A stretch of 64,000 nucleotides of DNA, taken from assembly GCA_965197425.1 (NCBI GenBank), contig CBDANC010000014.1:235088-299087 (forward strand), in the 5' to 3' direction. Shown here piece after piece: positions 1,438 to 54,823 of the stretch (its first letter is position 1; every line of letters starts with the position of its first letter). This DNA comes from Bdellovibrionales bacterium (GTDB lineage Bacteria > Bdellovibrionota > Bdellovibrionia > Bdellovibrionales > JAUICD01). Below the pieces are notes generated by a model. The model searched no databases. It was not told where the DNA came from and worked only from the letters and a program-made list of their open reading frames with translations. The position numbers and the translations under genes are program-made.

Positions 1438-1488
1438 ATATGGCAAAAACCTGGTAAAGCCAGATTCTTTGCCATATTCAATCAGTGT
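1438..1488 (+). promoter_or_regulatory. hairpin + TCAATCAGTG box, copy 1 (dnaX leader)
   Basis: A perfect 10-bp stem (ATATGGCAAA at 1438-1447 with TTTGCCATAT at 1468-1477) has an inner CTGG/CCAG stem. TCAATCAGTG follows immediately at 1478-1487, then TTTGGAGAAG (SD) and the ATG at 1504. Confidence 0.6.
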
Positions 1489-3109: not shown

Positions 3110-3244
3110 CCTCTTTAGTGTTTAGGACATGTCATGTCAATTTTTCATTAACTAATAAACCTTTATTATTAACTAATAAACCTTTATTATTAGATAAGTT
3201 AGATAAGGTAGCCTCTTTAGTGTTTAGGATATGTCATGTCAATT
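3110..3244. repeat. 33-bp direct duplication of the recR ribosome-binding/start region, flanking short tandem repeats
   Basis: CCTCTTTAGTGTTTAGGAYATGTCATGTCAATT occurs at 3110-3142 and 3212-3244 with one mismatch. Between the copies are TTAACTAATAAACCTTTATTA x2 (3148-3189) and TTAGATAAG x2 (3190-3207). Confidence 0.9.
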
Positions 3245-4481: not shown

Positions 4482-5415
4482 CTAGTGGGACAGTCTGTAG
4501 TCGTAACCTTCCATTTCATTTATAATCTCTTCTATACTATGTTTCTTCTCATCCAACTGCATAAGAAAATTATCTAATGCAACTCCTGCAAACAATGGTG
4601 ATCCTAGTACCAGAAGGAAATGTGGTATGTCTTTAAAAAAAATGTTGCAGAAATAACAAGGGCAACATAACATGCTAGAATAGTTCCAGCACAATGCAAT
4701 ATATTAAACACGGGTCTAGAATATATGTAGTCTGGATTATTCTGATCGATTCTTATTATTTGTCTTCCATTGTTATTTAAATATTCTGTTATAGGTGAAG
4801 GTATCTTAGTATTATCTGAGTCACTCAGTGCGGTTGATTCGTTCTTCTTAATTTCATGGTTTCTATAAGAAGTTATAACTTTTGAAAGTTTATAAGGATT
4901 TTCCAACAAAAGTTTTTGGTTTATCTTTTTTATATCTCTACTATATTCTTCTAGTAAATATACTACGGAATTATCCTCCATATTAGCTATGTCGTAGGGA
5001 GTTTGATCTAGCTCATTGGTAATCAATGGTTCAGCTCCAAGATCCAACAACAGATAAGCCAATTCAATGTTATCTACTTTTGCAGCTAAATGCAAAGCTG
5101 TGTCTCCATCATTTTGATTTTGCATATTTACTAATGTATTTATAATGTCATAATCTGGTTCAGTGTCTGTCTTAAAAAACTGTAGAAGGAAATGTAGTTC
5201 TTCTATATTACCCGCTCTCAAGCTCTCTCATACCATTTATCTTCCCACCGTGAAGGAAAGTATTTGGATGAGTCTTCGTCATTTGGTACCAATCGAATAT
5301 TATTGGTGTCTTTTTTACTTTCAAAAATTAATACATCTATACAATCATCTTCACTTGCAAAAGTAACTTGCACCATAAAGGTCAAGACAAAAAAGAGACT
5401 TAAAAATCTACTATT
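4482..5415 (-). pseudogene. decayed secreted ankyrin-repeat membrane protein, an inverted paralog of 5586..7151
   Basis: Three frame pieces. Piece 1 (5415-5218) reads NSRFLSLFFVLTFMVQVTFASEDDCID...WYERA*; it is homologous to the N-terminus of the 5586 protein (NRFLNLFFVFVFTVQISFANSESCTD) but has TAA where the start codon should be. Piece 2 is ORF 4604..5221 (ankyrin repeats plus TM1). Piece 3 is ORF 4482..4694 (FKDIPHFLLVLGSPLFAGVAL, matching FWKIPVSIILSPIVATLAVL of the paralog). The frameshifts lie near 5220 and in the A8 tract at 4635-4642. Confidence 0.75.
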
Positions 5416-5585
5416 TTACAATGAAAACTCCCCCACTAATTAACATAAAAAACAAATCAAAAGATCAGAACTGTGCAATGGATTTTTTACAACGGTGTTG
5501 CATTTATAATCAAATTACACTAGCCTAGCAAGACCATTTTGGGGGGTTTGAATTTACTTCACGATAAAAAATTTGCGGATATCTA

Positions 5586-7151
5586 ATGAATAGGTTTTTA
5601 AACTTGTTTTTTGTGTTTGTTTTTACTGTTCAAATTTCTTTTGCAAACAGTGAAAGTTGCACTGATGCATTGGAGTCTAATTCTAGCTCTGAGAGGCAAC
5701 TCTCTTCAAATCAATTCAATATTGATTTAGAAAGTATATGGAATGATGCTATGGAAAATGGTGATTTAAAAGGGATACATTTTCTCATACAGCTAATAGA
5801 CAGATCATCACTATCGGATTTAGATAAAGAACTTGCCAGCGAGTTACGCAACTTATTTAACAAAAAATATAGTGAAGGAAACACTATTTTGCACATGGCT
5901 GCCAAGCATGATGATATAGACATACTTTCCTTTATGATAGATCATGGTGCTGATATAACAAGTGAAAACGATTTAAATGAAACACCCTATGATGTAGCAA
6001 AATATTATGAAAACCAATTTTCTATAGATGCCCTGGAAACCGCTATGAACGAAATGCACGAAATTGGTACACTAGAACAAGAGAAGGGGAAAAATAAAGG
6101 GATTGTTCAAACATTTCAAGGTTCAGAACCAATATCCAAAGTAGATGGCCATCTAGAAAGCTATATAGAAGAACAAACCCAACTAGCAGAAAGTGTTAAA
6201 AATAGAATAATTCAACATATTAAAAATCGAGATTTAATGAGGCTTAAGTTTCTTTTTGAGTATTTAAGAAAGAATAACCTGGATATAATTCTCGAAAACA
6301 CAAAACATATTTATATAACCAAATCCTACAAAACAACTTTTCTAATAATGGCTGCCAGGTTGGATGATGTAGATATAGTTGAGTTCCTACTAGATGACAA
6401 ATATCAAAACACTGTCTTAGAAAAGGATAGTCTTGACAAGAGTGTTCTACATGTTGCAGCAAATAATGGTTCGGCAAGAATAACTGAGACTATTTTAGAC
6501 AGCATGGAAGATGAAGATACTTTATATAGTTTGGTTAGTTTAAAAGAAAAGAAAACAGGCAATACTGTATTGCATAATGTAGTTATCAATGATCAATTCA
6601 ATTTACTTTCCATTATGTTGAATAGGTTAAAAAGTGTTTTGACCGAAATTTCTTATAACAAACTTTTGCAAATAAGGAATAATGAATCAAAAACTGTAGA
6701 AGATCTTATGAGAGACAAAAAAATACCTTCTAAAATAATAATTGAATTGAACAACAAACCTATCAACATTCAGACCATGTATGCTGACTATAAGAGAGAA
6801 GAACGTGCTGCTAAGCAAATCGCTGAAGTAGATATAAAGGTGTTAAAGAGAAAACTTAATTATGAATTGAAGTTTAAAGGCAGAAAAGTGAGGCGAATTT
6901 TCCAATCCTTCAACAAAGTGGAGACTAAGCCTTTGTTCAGGTATTCTTTTTTTACAAACATTTTTTGGAAGATACCAGTATCTATTATCTTAAGCCCAAT
7001 TGTTGCAACACTTGCTGTTTTGGCGTCTCCCTGGCTAACATATTATCAATTTTTTTATCATCGTGTATCAAAGAACAATCGTACATATAAAATATCTGAT
7101 CTGGTAAAAATTAAGCCAGATCCACCTGATCTACTAAGTGATATCAACTAA
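5586..7151 (+). CDS. secreted/membrane-anchored ankyrin-repeat protein
   Basis: Signal peptide MNRFLNLFFVFVFTVQISFA; ankyrin motifs (GNTILHMAAKHDDIDILSFMIDHGADI, SVLHVAANNG, GNTVLHNVV); C-terminal hydrophobic hairpin. Confidence 0.85.
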   Translation: MNRFLNLFFVFVFTVQISFANSESCTDALESNSSSERQLSSNQFNIDLESIWNDAMENGDLKGIHFLIQLIDRSSLSDLDKELASELRNLFNKKYSEGNTILHMAAKHDDIDILSFMIDHGADITSENDLNETPYDVAKYYENQFSIDALETAMNEMHEIGTLEQEKGKNKGIVQTFQGSEPISKVDGHLESYIEEQTQLAESVKNRIIQHIKNRDLMRLKFLFEYLRKNNLDIILENTKHIYITKSYKTTFLIMAARLDDVDIVEFLLDDKYQNTVLEKDSLDKSVLHVAANNGSARITETILDSMEDEDTLYSLVSLKEKKTGNTVLHNVVINDQFNLLSIMLNRLKSVLTEISYNKLLQIRNNESKTVEDLMRDKKIPSKIIIELNNKPINIQTMYADYKREERAAKQIAEVDIKVLKRKLNYELKFKGRKVRRIFQSFNKVETKPLFRYSFFTNIFWKIPVSIILSPIVATLAVLASPWLTYYQFFYHRVSKNNRTYKISDLVKIKPDPPDLLSDIN

Positions 7152-7169
7152 AAAAGTGGCAAGCAGAAA

Positions 7170-9314
7170 TTATTTTGTCAGATTAGCACTTAATCTAGCA
7201 TATTTATTTTCTAAGAAGATTAAAATTTCTTTGGACACTTCTTTGTACATACCTTTACTCTCAAAATATCTTTCTATAGCATAGTCCATCGGGGTTTCTC
7301 CTTCTTTATCCTCAAAATAAATATCTGCACCACGTTCTATAAGCCATACTACAGCTTTATAATTTCTACTTGTTACTGCTAGATGAAGAGGGGTTCTGCC
7401 CAAAAGATTAGGTAAGTTGATCTGATCTCTGTCAAGAAGATTTAATATTGAAAGAGTTCTGTTTGTGTTTCCAATTCTTGCAGAAGCCCAGTGCATGATA
7501 CTTTCACCTTTGTTTGTTAATTTCTGTTTATCCACTTTAAACCTCAAAAGAGTTTTCACCATACCAACTACACTATGTCCTGCAGCATAATGAAGCGCAT
7601 TTGCACCCAAATTATTTGCTTTATTTAAGTCAGCACCTGCATTAACAAGCATATTAGTTATACTATCGCTATGTGTATTGTATCTTGCAGAAGCGAACCA
7701 ATGAACAACTGCCATACCATATCTATCATCTAAGTTAGGGTCTGCTCCGTTTTCTAATAACACTTTAATTATGGGAATAAATTGGTTATAAGCAGCCCAA
7801 CGAAGAGGTGTATCTCCAGAAGTATTTTTTGTGTTAACATCTGCTCCCATTTCTATCAATGTTTCTACAAAGTTTAATCTGTTATACCTAACAGCCATCT
7901 GTAATAAAGTATCTTCCTTATCATCATATTTAAAATCATCTGCTGAAACTATATTGTTACTGTTGAGTATTTGTTTGAACTTTCTAAAATTGTTACTCAT
8001 TATTGAATCAAAGAGTGTCTCTCCTACGGAAGGCCCGTATTTTTCCTTGTTATGATTCTCAATTAGGTCATATATAATCCAGTTACCATTTTCAGAGGCT
8101 ATTTCAAGTGCTGTTTTTCCGCTTTGATCTCTAACTCCTATATCAAGATCTTTGTTAGCTAAAAGTGCTCTTGCGGCTTCAATATTTCCTTTTTCTACAG
8201 CCAGGTGTAGTAAGGTGGTTTCAATTCTATCAGCTTTAACAAACACAGAGTTAAGATCGTCTAGTTCTTTTGATTGATTATCCAGCTCCAACCAATCATC
8301 CTTGTCCCTACTAACTGTTATGTCAGCACCGTTTATAGATAGTGCTCTTATTACTGCGTATTTTTTGTTGTTAAATGCAAGAGAAATAGCCGTGTCTCCT
8401 TCTTTGTTTACGGAATCTATATCAACTCCATAATCCATAAGAATAGCAACAATATTTGGGTTTAGTATTGTGACAGCACCTGATTTACTAGATATAGCAA
8501 GTGCATGAAATGGTGTGTTTCCGTTGGAATCAACTAGTTTTGCATCTATATCATTTTCCAACAAAAGTGTAATCATAGGGAGTATTTTTTTATTCGCTTT
8601 AGCTGTCCAATGTAGTGCTGTGGTTTTGTTACTACTTCCTCTTGAGTTGATAAAAGCTCCTCTGTCAATCAAAGTTTCTGCTGCTTCCATGTTTCCTTGG
8701 AAGGCAGCCAGTGACAGTGGTGTTTTAAAATGTTCCTGGCCAAGTCGTTTGAAACCAGCAACCTCCTCTATATCAGCTCCAGCGTCTAACAAAATGGTTA
8801 TAGCTTCAGGATTAAATTCTTTGTATTTTGATGGCTTAGAGGGAATAGATAAATGAAGAGGAGTTGATCCTTGAACAGTTCTAGCTTTGATGTCAGCATC
8901 ACTTTCTATGAGTAATCTTAAAATATCTAGGTTGACAGGAAAAGTATTTACTGCTTCATGAATAGCCTGAAAACCCAATTTATTTTTTAAATGTATGTTT
9001 GCTCCCTTGCTTATAAGAAACTCTACCATGTCTGTATTTCCAACTCTAACAGCAAGGTGAATAGGTCGATCTAGCATGATTCTATTTGTATCTATAACAT
9101 TTACATCTGCACCCATTTTTAATGCATTAATTACTTCGGTTAAGTCATCATTTTTTATAGTTGCAACTAATTTTTCATCTGATTCAGTCATTGACCTTAC
9201 TTTATAAGTTCTGTTTTTTGAAAGAGAACTTGCACAGTCATACTCCATCACAACAGAGGCTACAGACACTTCAACAAAAAAAATAAAATAAAGTATAAAA
9301 ACTTTATGATTCAT
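7170..9314 (-). CDS. large secreted ankyrin-repeat protein (714 aa, about 15 or more repeats)
   Basis: N-terminal signal-like segment VFILYFIFFVEVSVASV, then repeated TPLHLA/ALH..A...G..D.N motifs throughout. Confidence 0.9.
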   Translation of the reverse strand: MNHKVFILYFIFFVEVSVASVVMEYDCASSLSKNRTYKVRSMTESDEKLVATIKNDDLTEVINALKMGADVNVIDTNRIMLDRPIHLAVRVGNTDMVEFLISKGANIHLKNKLGFQAIHEAVNTFPVNLDILRLLIESDADIKARTVQGSTPLHLSIPSKPSKYKEFNPEAITILLDAGADIEEVAGFKRLGQEHFKTPLSLAAFQGNMEAAETLIDRGAFINSRGSSNKTTALHWTAKANKKILPMITLLLENDIDAKLVDSNGNTPFHALAISSKSGAVTILNPNIVAILMDYGVDIDSVNKEGDTAISLAFNNKKYAVIRALSINGADITVSRDKDDWLELDNQSKELDDLNSVFVKADRIETTLLHLAVEKGNIEAARALLANKDLDIGVRDQSGKTALEIASENGNWIIYDLIENHNKEKYGPSVGETLFDSIMSNNFRKFKQILNSNNIVSADDFKYDDKEDTLLQMAVRYNRLNFVETLIEMGADVNTKNTSGDTPLRWAAYNQFIPIIKVLLENGADPNLDDRYGMAVVHWFASARYNTHSDSITNMLVNAGADLNKANNLGANALHYAAGHSVVGMVKTLLRFKVDKQKLTNKGESIMHWASARIGNTNRTLSILNLLDRDQINLPNLLGRTPLHLAVTSRNYKAVVWLIERGADIYFEDKEGETPMDYAIERYFESKGMYKEVSKEILIFLENKYARLSANLTK

Positions 9315-21746: not shown

Positions 21747-21810
21747 GGTGTGAATATAAAATAGTTTTAAATTGTAAGCAAAGGTATTATTGTAAGCCAA
21801 AAAACAATTT

Positions 21811-21831
21811 ATTGCCAGATTCAATCAGTGT
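21811..21831 (+). promoter_or_regulatory. TCAATCAGTG box, copy 2 (trmH-like leader)
   Basis: GCCAGATTCAATCAGTGTTGGAAAGAG, with the box at 21821-21830, 14 nt before the ATG at 21845. Shares the CCAGATTC flank with copy 1. The upstream stem is only imperfect (GGTATTATTGT / ACAATTTATTGCC). Confidence 0.5.
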
Positions 21832-21844
21832 TGGAAAGAGCTTA

Positions 21845-25591: not shown

Positions 25592-25671
25592 TAAAACAAA
25601 TATTTTTACAGGACATTTCTACTGGATAGCAGATGTGTCAAAACGTAATTCATCCATCAAAAATAGAACAA

Positions 25672-25702
25672 GTCCCATTGTTTGCTGGGACTCAATCAGT
25701 GC
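25672..25702 (+). promoter_or_regulatory. hairpin + TCAATCAGTG box, copy 4
   Basis: GTCCCA (25672-25677) ttgtttgc TGGGAC (25686-25691), followed immediately by TCAATCAGTG at 25692-25701. Lies inside a 240-bp spacer. Confidence 0.55.
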
Positions 25703-25831
25703 TGAGGAAGACCTTGAGAAACTTAGATCAGCATCGTGTTCCAGAGCTGGGCAACCATCAATTATCGAATATCCCTGATTGCCCGACTGCCTGCTCAGAT
25801 ACTAAATCTATACTTTAGTTCAGTAAAATAA

Positions 25832-26728
25832 ATGACACCTTATAGGTTACAATCTTACTCTATGAAGTCTTTTGTGCTGCTGATATTGATCTTGTTCCAA
25901 ACAACAAATGCCATAGGCTCTATGGGAAATCACAAGATAGAATCCTCTCTAATATTTGATCTACCCATAGAGTACAACCCACATGTTCAAAAGTGGATAA
26001 ACTACTTTCAAAATTCCGGTAGAAAGCATTTTTCCAAATGGCTTGAACGACATAAAAGTGTAGTACCTAGAATACAAGACATCTTAGAAACACATGGTCT
26101 TCCAAGAGATCTGGTTTACATGGCCATGATTGAAAGTGGTTTTTCACCCTATGCCAAATCACATAAAGATGCTGTAGGTCCGTGGCAATTTATAAAACCC
26201 ACCGCAGAACGCTTTGGTTTAAAAGTAAACTCATGGATTGATGAAAGAAAGGATATTGATAAAAGCACAATAGCTGCTACCAGATACCTAAAATATCTCT
26301 ATGGAATGTTTGGCTCTTGGTACCTAGTAGCTGCTGCATATAATACAGGAGAAAATAGAGTACATAGAGCAATAATAAAGCACAAAACCAAAAACTTTTG
26401 GGAACTTATCAAAAATAACGCCCTTCACAGCGAAACAACAAATTATGTTCCAAAACTAATAGCAGCCATGTTAATTGCAAAAGCCCCAGGGCTCTATGGC
26501 TTTAGACAAATAAACTACAAAAATCCAACCCTGTTTGCATATTTTAGCTTCCCAGGTGGAACAAATATCAAAAGCTTAAGTAAATACCTAAATGTAAACT
26601 CAGAGGTTATAACAGGTCTAAACCCTGAACTAAACTTAACTACAATCCCAAGCTTTGTTAGATCACATAAAATCAAGATACCCCTACACTCAATGAACAG
26701 AGCACAGGAGTATATCAAAACTCTATAA
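25832..26728 (+). CDS. lytic transglycosylase (SLT domain, MltD-like)
   Basis: MIESGFSPYAKSHKDAVGPWQF, AAYNTGENRV. The start is ambiguous: 25832, or 25862 (MKSFVLLILILF signal peptide). Confidence 0.8.
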   Translation: MTPYRLQSYSMKSFVLLILILFQTTNAIGSMGNHKIESSLIFDLPIEYNPHVQKWINYFQNSGRKHFSKWLERHKSVVPRIQDILETHGLPRDLVYMAMIESGFSPYAKSHKDAVGPWQFIKPTAERFGLKVNSWIDERKDIDKSTIAATRYLKYLYGMFGSWYLVAAAYNTGENRVHRAIIKHKTKNFWELIKNNALHSETTNYVPKLIAAMLIAKAPGLYGFRQINYKNPTLFAYFSFPGGTNIKSLSKYLNVNSEVITGLNPELNLTTIPSFVRSHKIKIPLHSMNRAQEYIKTL

Positions 26729-27703: not shown

Positions 27704-27896
27704 ATTTTTACCTCTTAATTTTGCCGTCAACACTATGAAAGATATAATGATATCACAAATTTTGGTTGATGTATGGTACCTTAGGCTTTATGAAACTGTA
27801 TGCAGTTGAAGTAACTGTGCCGGAACGTAGGACCACTGAAAAAACGAACAAGTCCGTTTATTTCATTGGCCTCTCAGTGTTGTTGAACGTAATTCG

Positions 27897-27944
27897 CCTG
27901 ACAAAAAAGCAACAAGTCACTTTTTGGTCAGGCTCAATCAGTGT
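27897..27944 (+). promoter_or_regulatory. hairpin + TCAATCAGTG box, copy 3 (speA leader)
   Basis: CCTGACAAAAA (27897-27907) pairs with TTTTTGGTCAGG (27921-27932, one bulge). The box lies at 27934-27943 and the ATG at 27950. A degenerate box, CTCTCAGTGT, lies at 27871-27880. Confidence 0.6.
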
Positions 27945-36902: not shown

Positions 36903-37262
36903 TTACTTCTTCTTTCTTCTTACTTTTCTTTTTGTAGCCTTTCTTTTTGTAGTTCTTCTCTTTGTAGCTTTTCTCTTCGTGACTTTCCTCTTTGTAGCTT
37001 TCCTCTTCGTGGCTTTCCGTTTTGTAGCCTTTTTCTTCGTCTTTCTCTTAGCTACTTTTCTTTTGGCTGTTTTTCTTTTTGTAGCCTTTCTTTTTGTAGT
37101 TCTTCTCTTTGTAGCCTTTCTTTTTGTAGTTCTTCTCTTTGTAGCTTTTCTCTTTGTTGTTTTTCTTTTAGCTACTTTTCTTCTTGTAACTTTTTTCTTC
37201 GTCTTTCTCTTCGTGGCTTTCCTTGCCGTAGCTTTCTTCTTCGTTTTTCTTCTTACTGCCAT
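36903..37262 (-). CDS. lysine/arginine-repeat histone-H1/Hc-like DNA-binding protein
   Basis: 119 aa made almost only of K/R/T/A/V (KRKATKRKTTKRKATKRR...). GGAGGG SD upstream. Contains three exact copies of a 30-nt unit. Confidence 0.8.
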   Translation of the reverse strand: MAVRRKTKKKATARKATKRKTKKKVTRRKVAKRKTTKRKATKRRTTKRKATKRRTTKRKATKRKTAKRKVAKRKTKKKATKRKATKRKATKRKVTKRKATKRRTTKRKATKRKVRRKKK

Positions 37263-37414
37263 AGTTATCCCTCCTGGTAGGCTTTTACGGTGTAATTGAA
37301 CTTCGTACTCTCATATTTAAGAATACCTGTATGCAATTGATCGTCAACTAAAAGTTGTGTTTTTTTCTAATTTTTTTTATATTTTCTAGATCGAGAATAA
37401 GTTTTTGGAGTTTT

Positions 37415-38566: not shown

Positions 38567-38958
38567 TATTATCAGTAATAATTGCCCTATCTTTGGAAGG
38601 ACATATATATAATGACATAATCAAAACTAAATCCAAAGAAGAGCTAGGCAGTCTGATAGAAGTATTAGAAAAAGGCAACCTTTATAAAACAGGCTGTATT
38701 GCGGAATTAGCAAAAAATCAATTTCCAACAAATTGTATACATTTTTTAAAGATAATAGAATCATCCAAATATAAAGACAAACTTGGAACTAAAAAAGCCA
38801 AAAGTGAAATAAAAAGCTACTGTGCTAAAAAAGACCTTGTTTTTAAGCTTGAAGGTGGTTCAGATTTAGATGACAGTTTTAAAAAAGAATATCCAAAATG
38901 TTTTGAAAGGTACTCCGAAAAGCTAATGGATATTAAATACAAAAAATCAAAGAACTAA
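38563..38958 (+). CDS. hypothetical Cys-containing small protein
   Basis: 131-aa ORF. ATGA overlap with the previous ORF and abuts uppP. No recognised motif. Confidence 0.5.
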   Translation: MILSVIIALSLEGHIYNDIIKTKSKEELGSLIEVLEKGNLYKTGCIAELAKNQFPTNCIHFLKIIESSKYKDKLGTKKAKSEIKSYCAKKDLVFKLEGGSDLDDSFKKEYPKCFERYSEKLMDIKYKKSKN

Positions 38959-39784
38959 TGTATCCTGACATATTAAAATCCATTTTATTAGGTATAATTC
39001 AAGGAATAACTGAGTTTTTACCAATATCTAGCTCCGGACATCTAACACTAGCACAACATTTTTTGGGTATTTATAAAGAAACAATACAATTTGATATAGT
39101 TGTGCATTTTGCAACTTTGTTGTCGGTATTTACGGTTATGAGAGGAGTTTTAATAAAGCTTTTTTATCTCATATTAGAAGATATAAAGAGTCGAAACTTT
39201 ACTGGTACTGGCCTCCTGCTTTTATATAAAATCATTGTGGCAACAATCCCTGTTGGCTTAGTTGGTGTGTTTTTTAGAGGTAATATAGAATCTCTTTTTA
39301 ACAATCTTACTGTAGTGGCTTTAGCATTTTGCTTTACTGGAATATTATTGCTGTCCACAAAAATTTATGAAAACATTCGAATTCCGTAGATGCCGGAGAT
39401 ATTGAAGATATTAAGGACATAAACTTTATGCAAAGCTTTATTGTTGGGATTTTTCAAATGATAGCCATTATACCTGGTGTTAGTAGATCTGGGACTTCTA
39501 TTGTCGGTGGAATGATGACCAAGATGAGTAATTTAACTAGTGTTTATTTTAGCTTCATTATATCAATACCTGCAATTTTAGGGGCTACGGTGTTAGAAAT
39601 AAAAAAAATGGCCATATCACCATCTGATGTAGACATTTGGTTTTTAGCCGCTGGATTTTTAGCAGCATATATATCTGGTGTTGTGGGTTTGACACTAGTG
39701 GTGAAAATTGCAAAAAACAAAAAACTATTCTACTTTACACCTTACCTTGTTATCTTGGGGCTGATATTATTGATATTTTTTTAA
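38958..39784 (+). pseudogene. uppP: undecaprenyl-diphosphatase UppP/BacA, split by a frameshift near 39380-39390
   Basis: The N-terminal ORF 38958..39389 has GIIQGITEFLPISSSGHL. The C-terminal ORF carries IPGVSRSGTSIVGG in a different frame that is already open from 39389 (DAGDIEDIKDINFMQSF...). Together they are collinear with full-length UppP. Confidence 0.75.
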
Positions 39785-50245: not shown

Positions 50246-50564
50246 AGAGCTTATCTCCAACAGAAATCTTATCAGACATTCCTACATTCATTTCAAAAAC
50301 GGATGAAGTCCCTATGATTGGCCACACAACACGCCAAGGTTTTAAATTTTTATGAATTTTTTTAACCAAAAGAAAGTCATTTACGAATACTACATCTATG
50401 GGAATTCTCATAAAAAATGTATGGATACTATTGCACTTTTGAATCCATAAAATAAAATCCAGTTTGTTAATTCCTAAAAGCCCTCTAACTCTGGATTTTA
50501 AATTACTAGCTTCAACTAGTTTTTCTGTTATGACTAAATTGGTATTTAAGTTTTTTAAAGTCAT
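50232..50564 (-). CDS. DUF192-family protein
   Basis: RVRGLLG, IHTFFMRIPIDVVFVN, SSVFEMNVG...GDKL. This matches the DUF192 pattern as I recall it. Confidence 0.7.
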   Translation of the reverse strand: MTLKNLNTNLVITEKLVEASNLKSRVRGLLGINKLDFILWIQKCNSIHTFFMRIPIDVVFVNDFLLVKKIHKNLKPWRVVWPIIGTSSVFEMNVGMSDKISVGDKLYVGN

Positions 50565-54641: not shown

Positions 54642-54648
54642 AATTTCT

Positions 54649-54823
54649 ATAATTCCAAAATTTCAATTTTTTGGAAGTTTAAACAAAGTAACTCACATTT
54701 TTGGAAGTTGCAAGACTTATAATTCCAAAATTTCAATTTTTTGGAAGTTTAAACAAAGTAACTCACATTTTTGGAAGTTGCAAGACTTATAATTCCAAAA
54801 TTTCAATTTTTTGGAAGTTTAAA
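54649..54823. repeat. 70-bp tandem repeat, 2 full copies + 35 bp, immediately upstream of the Fic start
   Basis: Units begin at 54649, 54719 and 54789; the two full copies appear identical by eye. Each unit contains the inverted repeat TTCCAAAA-n8-TTTTGGAA plus a further TTTTGGAAG. Confidence 0.92.

Follow-up and report, generated by a model that had tools for sequence, protein, structure and literature searches.

We analyzed a stretch of 64,000 nucleotides of DNA, hereafter called the window, which comes from an AT-rich genome (~34% GC) and shows a negative GC skew on the + strand throughout. The homologues of its DnaX and SpeA proteins place the window in Bdellovibrionota. The features under study lie in the first 28 kb, and concern the genes dnaX (ATG 1504), trmH (SpoU; ATG 21845), and speA (ATG 27950), as well as the spacer between an MscS-porin-like gene (stop 25591) and a lytic-transglycosylase gene (ATG 25862). 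For comparison, we used the syntenic DNA of the nearest relatives available, namely L001 and L003, which lie on one 35.6-kb contig (DnaX 76% and SpeA 89% identity), L004 (SpeA 85%), L005 (SpeA 82%), and L002 (DnaX 65%).

The window contains several other unusual arrangements. The spacer between dnaX and recR measures 154 nt, versus 40 nt in L001. The ribosome-binding region and first codons of recR are duplicated here, the 37-nt segment 3106–3142 matching 3208–3244 at 95%, and a perfect 21-nt tandem repeat of 2.2 units (3147–3192) lies between the duplicates; the whole resembles an insertion accompanied by a long target duplication. Three ankyrin-repeat ORFs (205, 521, and 714 aa) occupy positions 4604–9314 between an Arf-like GTPase gene and lon, a site taken up in L001 by one unrelated gene of 267 aa. 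It is unusual for free-living bacteria to have ankyrin proteins, and these ORFs may hint at interaction with a eukaryotic host. An array with 15-, 30-, and 147-nt periodicity (36923–37253) is located inside overlapping ORFs (36903–37262 on the minus strand and 36979–37299 on the plus strand), and a Pfam scan of the minus-strand ORF returned no match. The undecaprenyl-diphosphatase gene (BacA/UppP, 38958–39784) is broken into two ORFs, one matching profile positions 2–131 and the other 148–257; this could represent a pseudogene, a frameshift, or an assembly error. Additionally, a 70-nt unit present 2.5 times with 100% identity (54648–54823), between a Fic-domain gene and an acyl-CoA dehydrogenase gene, looks like a very recent tandem duplication.

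The exact 10-mer TCAATCAGTG occurs four times in the 64-kb window, starting at positions 1478, 21821, 25692, and 27934, each time on the + strand. An earlier note, made from the sequence alone, had regarded this recurrence as non-random, and the counts bear it out: dinucleotide-preserving shuffles contain 0.19 exact copies on average, and four or more were reached in none of 100 shuffles. Variants with one mismatch stay at chance level, with 7 observed and 5.4 expected. Also as previously described, three of the boxes lie 6–16 nt ahead of a start codon, the gap being 16 nt for dnaX, 14 nt for trmH, and 6 nt for speA. Two strings that had been listed as looser relatives of the box were dropped: the one at ung lies at or inside the conserved ung start and is not a member, and the one at recR constitutes the native leader of that gene, which two relatives conserve. 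A recurrence of TCAATCAGTG by chance, for which the small sample is the sole point in favor, has next to no probability; it is refuted by the shuffle counts together with the leave-one-out profiles described below, which detect similarity in the flanks independently of the box. We also rejected a DNA uptake sequence or strand-skewed architectural oligomer, as there are only four copies, all of them intergenic and all within a longer repeat.

This longer repeat is a unit of about 62 nt, of which TCAATCAGTG forms the 3′ end. Specifically, the unit begins with a 5′ box, (A)AACGTAATTC, followed by a 7-bp variable outer stem, an A-run, a AACAAGTC loop, a T-run that pairs with the A-run, the return stem, and, directly after the stem, the 3′ box in the form yTCAATCAGTG. 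Alignment of the sites gives units of equal length in copies 1, 3, and 4, and copies 3 and 4 have the apical region (G/C)AACAAGTC(C/A). By using a profile HMM and a covariance model (CM), we found five copies within the window, all intergenic, all on the + strand, and all in the first 28 kb. They comprise three full units (at dnaX, in the spacer before the lytic-transglycosylase gene, and at speA), one degenerate tandem unit, and one 3′ fragment (at trmH), as listed here together with a neighboring block upstream of speA.

1424–1487, + strand: copy 1, full unit in the dnaX leader; 5′ box AAAACACAATTC at 1426–1437, hairpin at 1438–1477, TCAATCAGTG at 1478–1487.
21805–21842, + strand: copy 2, 3′ fragment in the trmH (SpoU) leader; box at 21821–21830, then GGAAAGAG and ATG 21845.
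25638–25701, + strand: copy 3, full-length unit; 5′ box at 25640–25651, residual 7-bp stem 25671–25677 / 25686–25692, box at 25692–25701.
27766–27794, + strand: promoter-like block of speA (TTGATG, 17 nt, TATGAA), upstream of the insertion and not part of the repeat.
27820–27879, + strand: copy 5, degenerate unit; 5′ GGAACGTAGG, hairpin at 27829–27872 with loop AACAAGTC, degenerate box CCTCTCAGTG at 27870–27879; CM score 45 bits.
27882–27943, + strand: copy 4, full unit in the speA leader; 5′ box GAACGTAATTC at 27885–27895, hairpin at 27896–27933, box at 27934–27943.

Copy 1 is followed by GGAG (1491–1494) and then by the dnaX start codon. Copy 2 contains TTGCCAGATTCAATCAGTGTT, identical to copy 1 at 19 of 20 positions, and was found by models built without it (nhmmer E = 0.0018; CM E = 0.003). 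Copy 3 occupies the spacer between the MscS-porin-like and lytic-transglycosylase genes, while copy 5, whose 3′ end reads CTCTCAGTG, stands in direct tandem upstream of copy 4. When each copy was left out of the profile in turn, copies 3 and 4 were still detected after deletion of the box columns (E = 3e-4 each), and the recovery of copy 1 was weak (E = 0.04) and occurred only with the box kept. Copies 3, 4, and 5 therefore group into a clear subfamily, from which copies 1 and 2 stand apart as a more distant one. The profile also matched weakly, through the hairpin portion of the repeat, at 50288–50324 (AAAAACGGATGAAGTCCCTATGATTGGCC, E = 0.014–0.26), inside a minus-strand ORF of the FHA/T2SS-F cluster; this match is probably due to chance, and could otherwise be an old decayed copy. 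As to the origin of the variable stem arms, the local flanks contained no informative matches.

Folding of copies 1, 3, and 4 supports the earlier observation that three of the boxes abut a stem of variable sequence. The hairpin of copy 1 consists of 17 bp with two bulges (1438–1477; −20.6 kcal/mol, z = −6.4) and that of copy 4 of 7+6 bp (27896–27933), namely a 7-bp outer stem and a 6-bp A:U inner stem closed by the loop CAACAAGTCA; both abut the box. The 7-bp hairpin of copy 3 (25671–25692) overlaps the first T of the box, and folding of copy 2 gave no significant hairpin (z = 0.07). The outer stems differ between copies (ATATGGC, GCCTGAC, and AGGACCA). When the copy 4 hairpin was imposed on the alignment of four sequences, 74% of the cells were paired, a value that none of 500 shuffles reached, and 6 of the 13 pairs were altered on both sides, a count reached in 3 of 500 shuffles. 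Over the whole structure test, the observed values were reached by 0–5 of 500 shuffles, and every slid control was lower. These results agree with the description of a conserved box beside a varying stem, and lend modest support, at a depth of four sequences, to a stem that is kept as structure and not as sequence. Such a test needs an explicit structure: the consensus that RNAalifold alone derived from the four copies was not meaningful (−0.4 kcal/mol). Every pair in copies 4 and 5 is Watson–Crick and none is G-U; the fold is therefore equally good as DNA on either strand, and RNA is not singled out.

By comparison with the window, the corresponding dnaX, trmH, and speA sites of the closest available relatives are empty, and the flanks and promoter blocks are conserved. 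At dnaX, copy 1 is part of an insertion of ~118 nt (about 1383–1496) relative to L001; where L001 reads ...GATATAATTCAATTAAGAGAAAATAACAATG, the window has extra bases between the conserved upstream block and ...ATAACAATG. Further upstream lies a 24-nt tandem array of ATAAGTATAGATAACCCCTACGGG (1283–1374; 3.8 copies, 91% matches), of which L001 has ~1.5 units. This array overlaps the inferred dnaX −10 element (GATAAT, 1365–1370), and its TAGATAA cores could be protein-binding iterons. At trmH, the window and L003 are nearly base-for-base identical up to GTAAGCYAAAAAA, after which the window carries 36–38 extra nucleotides, consisting of copy 2 and GGAAAGAG, before the ATG. At speA, copies 5 and 4 constitute an insertion of ~125 nt relative to L003, L004, and L005. 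The block upstream of this insertion, TTGATG, 17 nt, TAT(T/G)AA, is common to all four genomes (the window, L003, L004, and L005), and its consensus and conservation suggest a promoter. The distance from its −10-like hexamer to the speA ATG is 7–8 nt in L004 and L005, 27 nt in L003, and ~155 nt in the window. Empty sites within conserved flanks indicate, by alignment of the orthologous regions, that the copies at dnaX, trmH, and speA were gained in the lineage of the window, as insertions into very short or absent leaders. Judged from the conserved promoter-like blocks rather than from mapped starts, these three copies would lie inside the transcribed leader.

The covariance model detected no copy in 98 kb of the relatives. 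A related hairpin occurs at L003 7920–7960, with an identical GAACAAGTCC loop but with TCATTAACC in place of the box; it occupies the counterpart of the spacer that holds copy 3, but is placed differently with respect to a flanking segment common to both. The hairpin family thus predates the split, and the box-bearing form multiplied only in the lineage of the window. We also searched with a 20-base structured pattern that fits three of the five copies, and obtained 28 matches in GTDB representative genomes and 37 in JGI metagenomes, neither of which includes the source genome. We attribute these matches to chance because each locus has a single one and none exceeds 16 bits against the element profile; the genomes that are named belong to unrelated taxa.

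The placement of three boxes near the starts of + strand genes, as described earlier, holds for dnaX, trmH, and speA; copy 3 stands away from any start codon. The box of copy 3 is 160 nt away from the lytic-transglycosylase ATG at 25862, and a conserved promoter block lies between the two; this ATG comes 9 nt after a conserved TACAAT. A 33-codon TTG ORF at 25714–25815 (LRNLDQHRVPELGNHQLSNIPDCPTACSDTKSIL) begins 7 nt after the GAGGAAGA of copy 3, but it was rejected as the reason for this copy, as L003 does not conserve it and has TTT in place of the TTG. Divergent spacers in the relatives are only 62–236 nt long and hold two promoters. Several of the partner genes look leaderless, such as pheS (21746, minus strand), which has TATATT 6 nt before its GTG. 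A −10-like hexamer is found 6–9 nt before the start of pheS, of the lytic-transglycosylase (SLT) gene at 25862, and of speA in L004 (~10037) and L005 (9320), a spacing that suggests leaderless mRNAs. In L004, the called speA start (10001) falls inside the promoter block, and the leaderless reading takes the ATG further downstream, which is the one in alignment with the other genomes. An SD-like motif is present in only about half of the 70 called genes of the relatives.

The relatives have their own repeat families at the same intergenic spots, namely the trmH leader, the region upstream of dnaX, and the MscS-like/SLT spacer. These include the following.

L004, 16824–17136: three 126-nt units in the trmH leader.
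L002, 7596–8013: units of ~125 nt before dnaX, two clear and a probable third by eye.
L005, about 7130–7230: the relative's own hairpin/tandem repeat.

The repeats of L002 and L004 have the motif TCAAGGTAGACTATAAAAGAATT in common. Because different repeats are found at the same spots, insertions appear to be generally permitted in this clade between the −10 element and the start codon. The sense orientation of the copies represents four independent events, and the probability that all four are sense is p ~0.06, which is not compelling; this orientation is equally explained by a replication-strand bias, given that all copies lie on one strand with uniform GC skew.

Taken together, these findings make it likely that the hairpin and the box are a unit of a short, non-coding, lineage-specific palindromic dispersed repeat of the REP/MITE kind, which would be co-transcribed within leaders. 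We favor this reading because the similarity extends far beyond the 10-mer, because the five copies include a degenerate tandem and a 3′ fragment, and because the orthologous sites at dnaX (L001), trmH (L003), and speA (L003–L005) are empty, the boxless L003 hairpin being the only relative of the element in those 98 kb. It is further favored by the placement of copy 3 away from any gene start, by a hairpin that keeps its columns while its sequence varies, by the relatives' own repeats, which show spacers to be general landing sites, by the lack of a fitting Rfam family, and by the presence of all copies on one strand with uniformly negative GC skew. Mobility would follow from the presence or absence of the element at orthologous sites, with only five copies known, all from the window.

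Some observations count against this reading. Among the window ORFs scanned with Pfam, there is no transposase or RAYT, and no clean target-site duplication was found, although a possible AGA(A)GAT occurs at the dnaX insertion, and the boundaries of the element are fuzzy with so few copies. Convincing terminal inverted repeats are also absent: AACGTAATTC and CACTGATTGA, the reverse complement of the box, align only with gaps (AC.G.A.TT), and the inverted repeat of the element is internal, in the stem, and not terminal. A GTG, the other candidate for a target-site duplication, stands 4–10 nt before the 5′ box in copies 1, 3, and 5, and GTG also ends every box. Three of the four exact boxes are 6–16 nt from a start codon, and copies 1–3 run into a purine-rich SD-like stretch, which in the case of copy 2 is absent from the native trmH leader. 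Moreover, conservation of the box at 10 of 10 positions in four copies beside dissimilar stems is unusual for a recently spread selfish repeat, and would fit a host-level function. The earlier note held that its proposal would fail if the copies were the ends of a dispersed repeat or MITE with no link to gene starts. The repeat and the empty sites largely bring about that situation; three of the four exact copies do remain at gene starts, a placement that can be explained by the tolerance of insertions in compact divergent promoter regions.

If the element is indeed a dispersed repeat, a strict box beside a structure-only stem could reflect a copying requirement, in which a trans-acting enzyme would recognize the folded single strand together with the adjacent single-stranded sequence. 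By analogy, this enzyme may resemble the HUH/Y1 transposases that act on REP or on IS200/IS605 ends. Palindrome-driven template switching might then change both stem arms together. The sense placement in leaders would simply mark where an insertion is tolerated, that is, in divergent intergenic regions of 60–120 nt that are packed with back-to-back promoters and whose partner genes are leaderless. Such insertions would lengthen the leaders from 0–30 nt to about 50–150 nt, and any effect on the translation or mRNA stability of dnaX, trmH, and speA would be a by-product, with the repeat itself presumably neutral to the host.

The earlier note had leaned towards an RNA-level element. What stands of that proposal is that the box is non-random, adjoins a stem, and in three cases lies in a leader before the ribosome-binding region; its weakness is that the orthologous leaders lack the element. 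Formulated as a host cis-regulatory RNA, in which the leader hairpin and the single-stranded box are bound or processed by a protein, an sRNA, or an RNase so that translation or stability is coordinated across a small regulon including dnaX, trmH, and speA, it draws on the exactness of the box in four copies, on a stem that varies with its pairing kept, on three sense copies within leaders at 6–16 nt from the start, and on the GGAG, GGAAAGAG, or GAGGAAGA that follows copies 1–3. In an alternative fold, the purine stretch could pair with the box or with the U-rich 3′ arm, at a consensus energy of only −0.4 kcal/mol. We nevertheless consider this reading unlikely, as the nearest relatives, with short leaders or none at all, lack the element at these genes, and as copy 3 sits 160 nt from the start and upstream of a promoter block, copy 5 is a degenerate tandem duplicate, and copy 2 is without a hairpin. 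The three genes are functionally unrelated, and no G-U pairs mark the RNA strand, so the DNA fold is equal on both strands. Rfam gave no match either: at gathering thresholds only tRNA-Phe was found in the window, and in permissive scans of the element regions no match overlapped the hairpin, one weak opposite-strand match far below threshold touching the box. The motif had not been recognized as a known one in the earlier note, which called for such a scan. On the evidence of the orthologous leaders, the box is not a conserved operator of dnaX, trmH, and speA, and a regulatory role of the repeat is possible but unsupported.

Two further readings concern translation initiation. The element could be a portable leader cassette with its own ribosome-binding stretch, retained because it turns leaderless or SD-poor genes into SD-led ones with a 5′ hairpin. 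The relatives have no SD at trmH, a weak SD at dnaX, and leaderless-type speA starts (L004 and L005); the segment inserted at trmH includes GGAAAGAG, and copy 3 carries GAGGAAGA with no conserved gene after it, which suggests that the purine stretch belongs to the element. However, copy 4 provides speA with only a poor TGGG where L003 has AAGAGG, the purine stretch at dnaX may be a duplicated native leader (AAGAGA in L001 versus GGAGAAGA in the window), and the sample amounts to three genes, which leaves the cassette decidedly improbable. Scarcely better placed, and in our view still quite improbable, is a structure-recognized mobile module aimed, in the sense orientation, at the interval between the transcription start site (TSS) and the start codon, delivering a hairpin, a docking box, and a purine stretch to leaderless or SD-poor genes. 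If true, it would imply recombination or targeting on a folded strand in the manner of attC or HUH systems, which is undescribed for leader regions. A DNA-level signal, whether a promoter or alternative-sigma element, a transcription-factor operator, or a terminator, is very unlikely. The hairpin is an inverted repeat and thus operator-like, and copies 1 and 3 contain a sigma-70-like match and one terminator-like match, both on the minus strand; but the promoter-like blocks lie upstream of the insertions and are present in relatives without the element, a common operator is excluded by the variability of the arms, the stem lacks a following U-tract on the + strand, and the 20 promoter-like matches in the region equal the shuffle level (21.2 expected). 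An intrinsic terminator was rejected, since no call covers a whole element on the + strand and copy 3 scores on the minus strand only; the sole + strand call inside an element is the apical 5-bp stem of copy 1 (1451–1463), which is without a clean T-tract. A sigma-54 or ECF reading was likewise rejected from the sequence.

If the dispersed-repeat reading is right, the window contributes a further palindromic repeat family, specific to one lineage and found in an uncultured, AT-rich Bdellovibrionota genome, and the leaders of essential genes (dnaX and speA) would have been lengthened five- to ten-fold over a short evolutionary distance. The repeat would be useful for annotation and for the interpretation of 5′ UTRs in a clade where many genes look leaderless. 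Should targeting of the TSS-to-start interval or docking at the box prove true, the element would illustrate how mobile DNA can rewire translation initiation in nature.

Among known systems, 5′-UTR hairpins such as RNA thermometers and translational operators likewise place a sense-strand stem-loop directly upstream of the ribosome-binding site, but the present element is not conserved with its genes, appears inserted, and matches no curated family. Integron attC sites resemble it in being recognized as a folded single strand, with structure kept, stem sequence free, and short boxes at both ends. Unlike attC, the R″/R′ core sites (RYYYAAC / GTTRRRY) are not consistently present here, and the neighbors are core housekeeping genes in conserved synteny, with no cassette array. 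No integrase was found among the scanned window ORFs, nor in the Pfam tables of the syntenic relative loci for the remaining genes, and an attC site was rejected on these grounds. The ends of IS200/IS605 elements combine a subterminal hairpin with a short conserved single-stranded cleavage or guide sequence, and their strand orientation is tied to replication; however, there is no tnpA or tnpB nearby, the hairpin here is variable whereas IS ends keep theirs, and the element is far shorter than any IS. Correia elements of Neisseria and ERIC/IRU elements of enterobacteria are also small non-autonomous repeats that are polymorphic between related genomes and often near gene starts. Their hairpins are transcribed within mRNAs and can alter processing and stability. 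They are 100–160 bp long with clear terminal inverted repeats, and with a TA duplication in Correia, compared with ~62 nt and no convincing terminal inverted repeat or target-site duplication here.

In our literature search, the 10-mer and its complement appeared only in papers that seem unrelated by their titles, mostly eukaryotic or biomedical, and nothing was found on REP-like repeats in Bdellovibrio or on leaderless genes in Bdellovibrionota. The element is like a MITE in its presence or absence at the orthologous dnaX, trmH, and speA sites (L001 and L003–L005) and in its five copies within the window, and differs in lacking terminal inverted repeats. It differs from the REP/BIME/REPIN sequences, which are served by RAYT, a Y1 HUH transposase, and number tens to hundreds in a genome, in having no GTAG/GTGG head at the 5′ foot of the palindrome; the conserved flank reads TCAATCAGTG, or CACTGATTGA on the opposite strand, and stem sequences vary from copy to copy. 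Additionally, the copies here form a direct tandem and not inverted pairs, they lie in 5′ leaders whereas REP sequences are usually at 3′ ends, and no RAYT/Y1 transposase is encoded by the window ORFs scanned. Yet the resemblance to this group is extensive: both are short, extragenic imperfect palindromes with a conserved single-stranded sequence at the foot of the stem, the hairpin being present in copies 1, 4, and 5 and partly in copy 3, and both are dispersed, sometimes clustered, non-coding, and often co-transcribed with their neighbors, as would be the case for the leader copies here. The feature is thus best explained as a lineage-restricted addition to the known class of small palindromic dispersed repeats, and not as a new regulatory motif.
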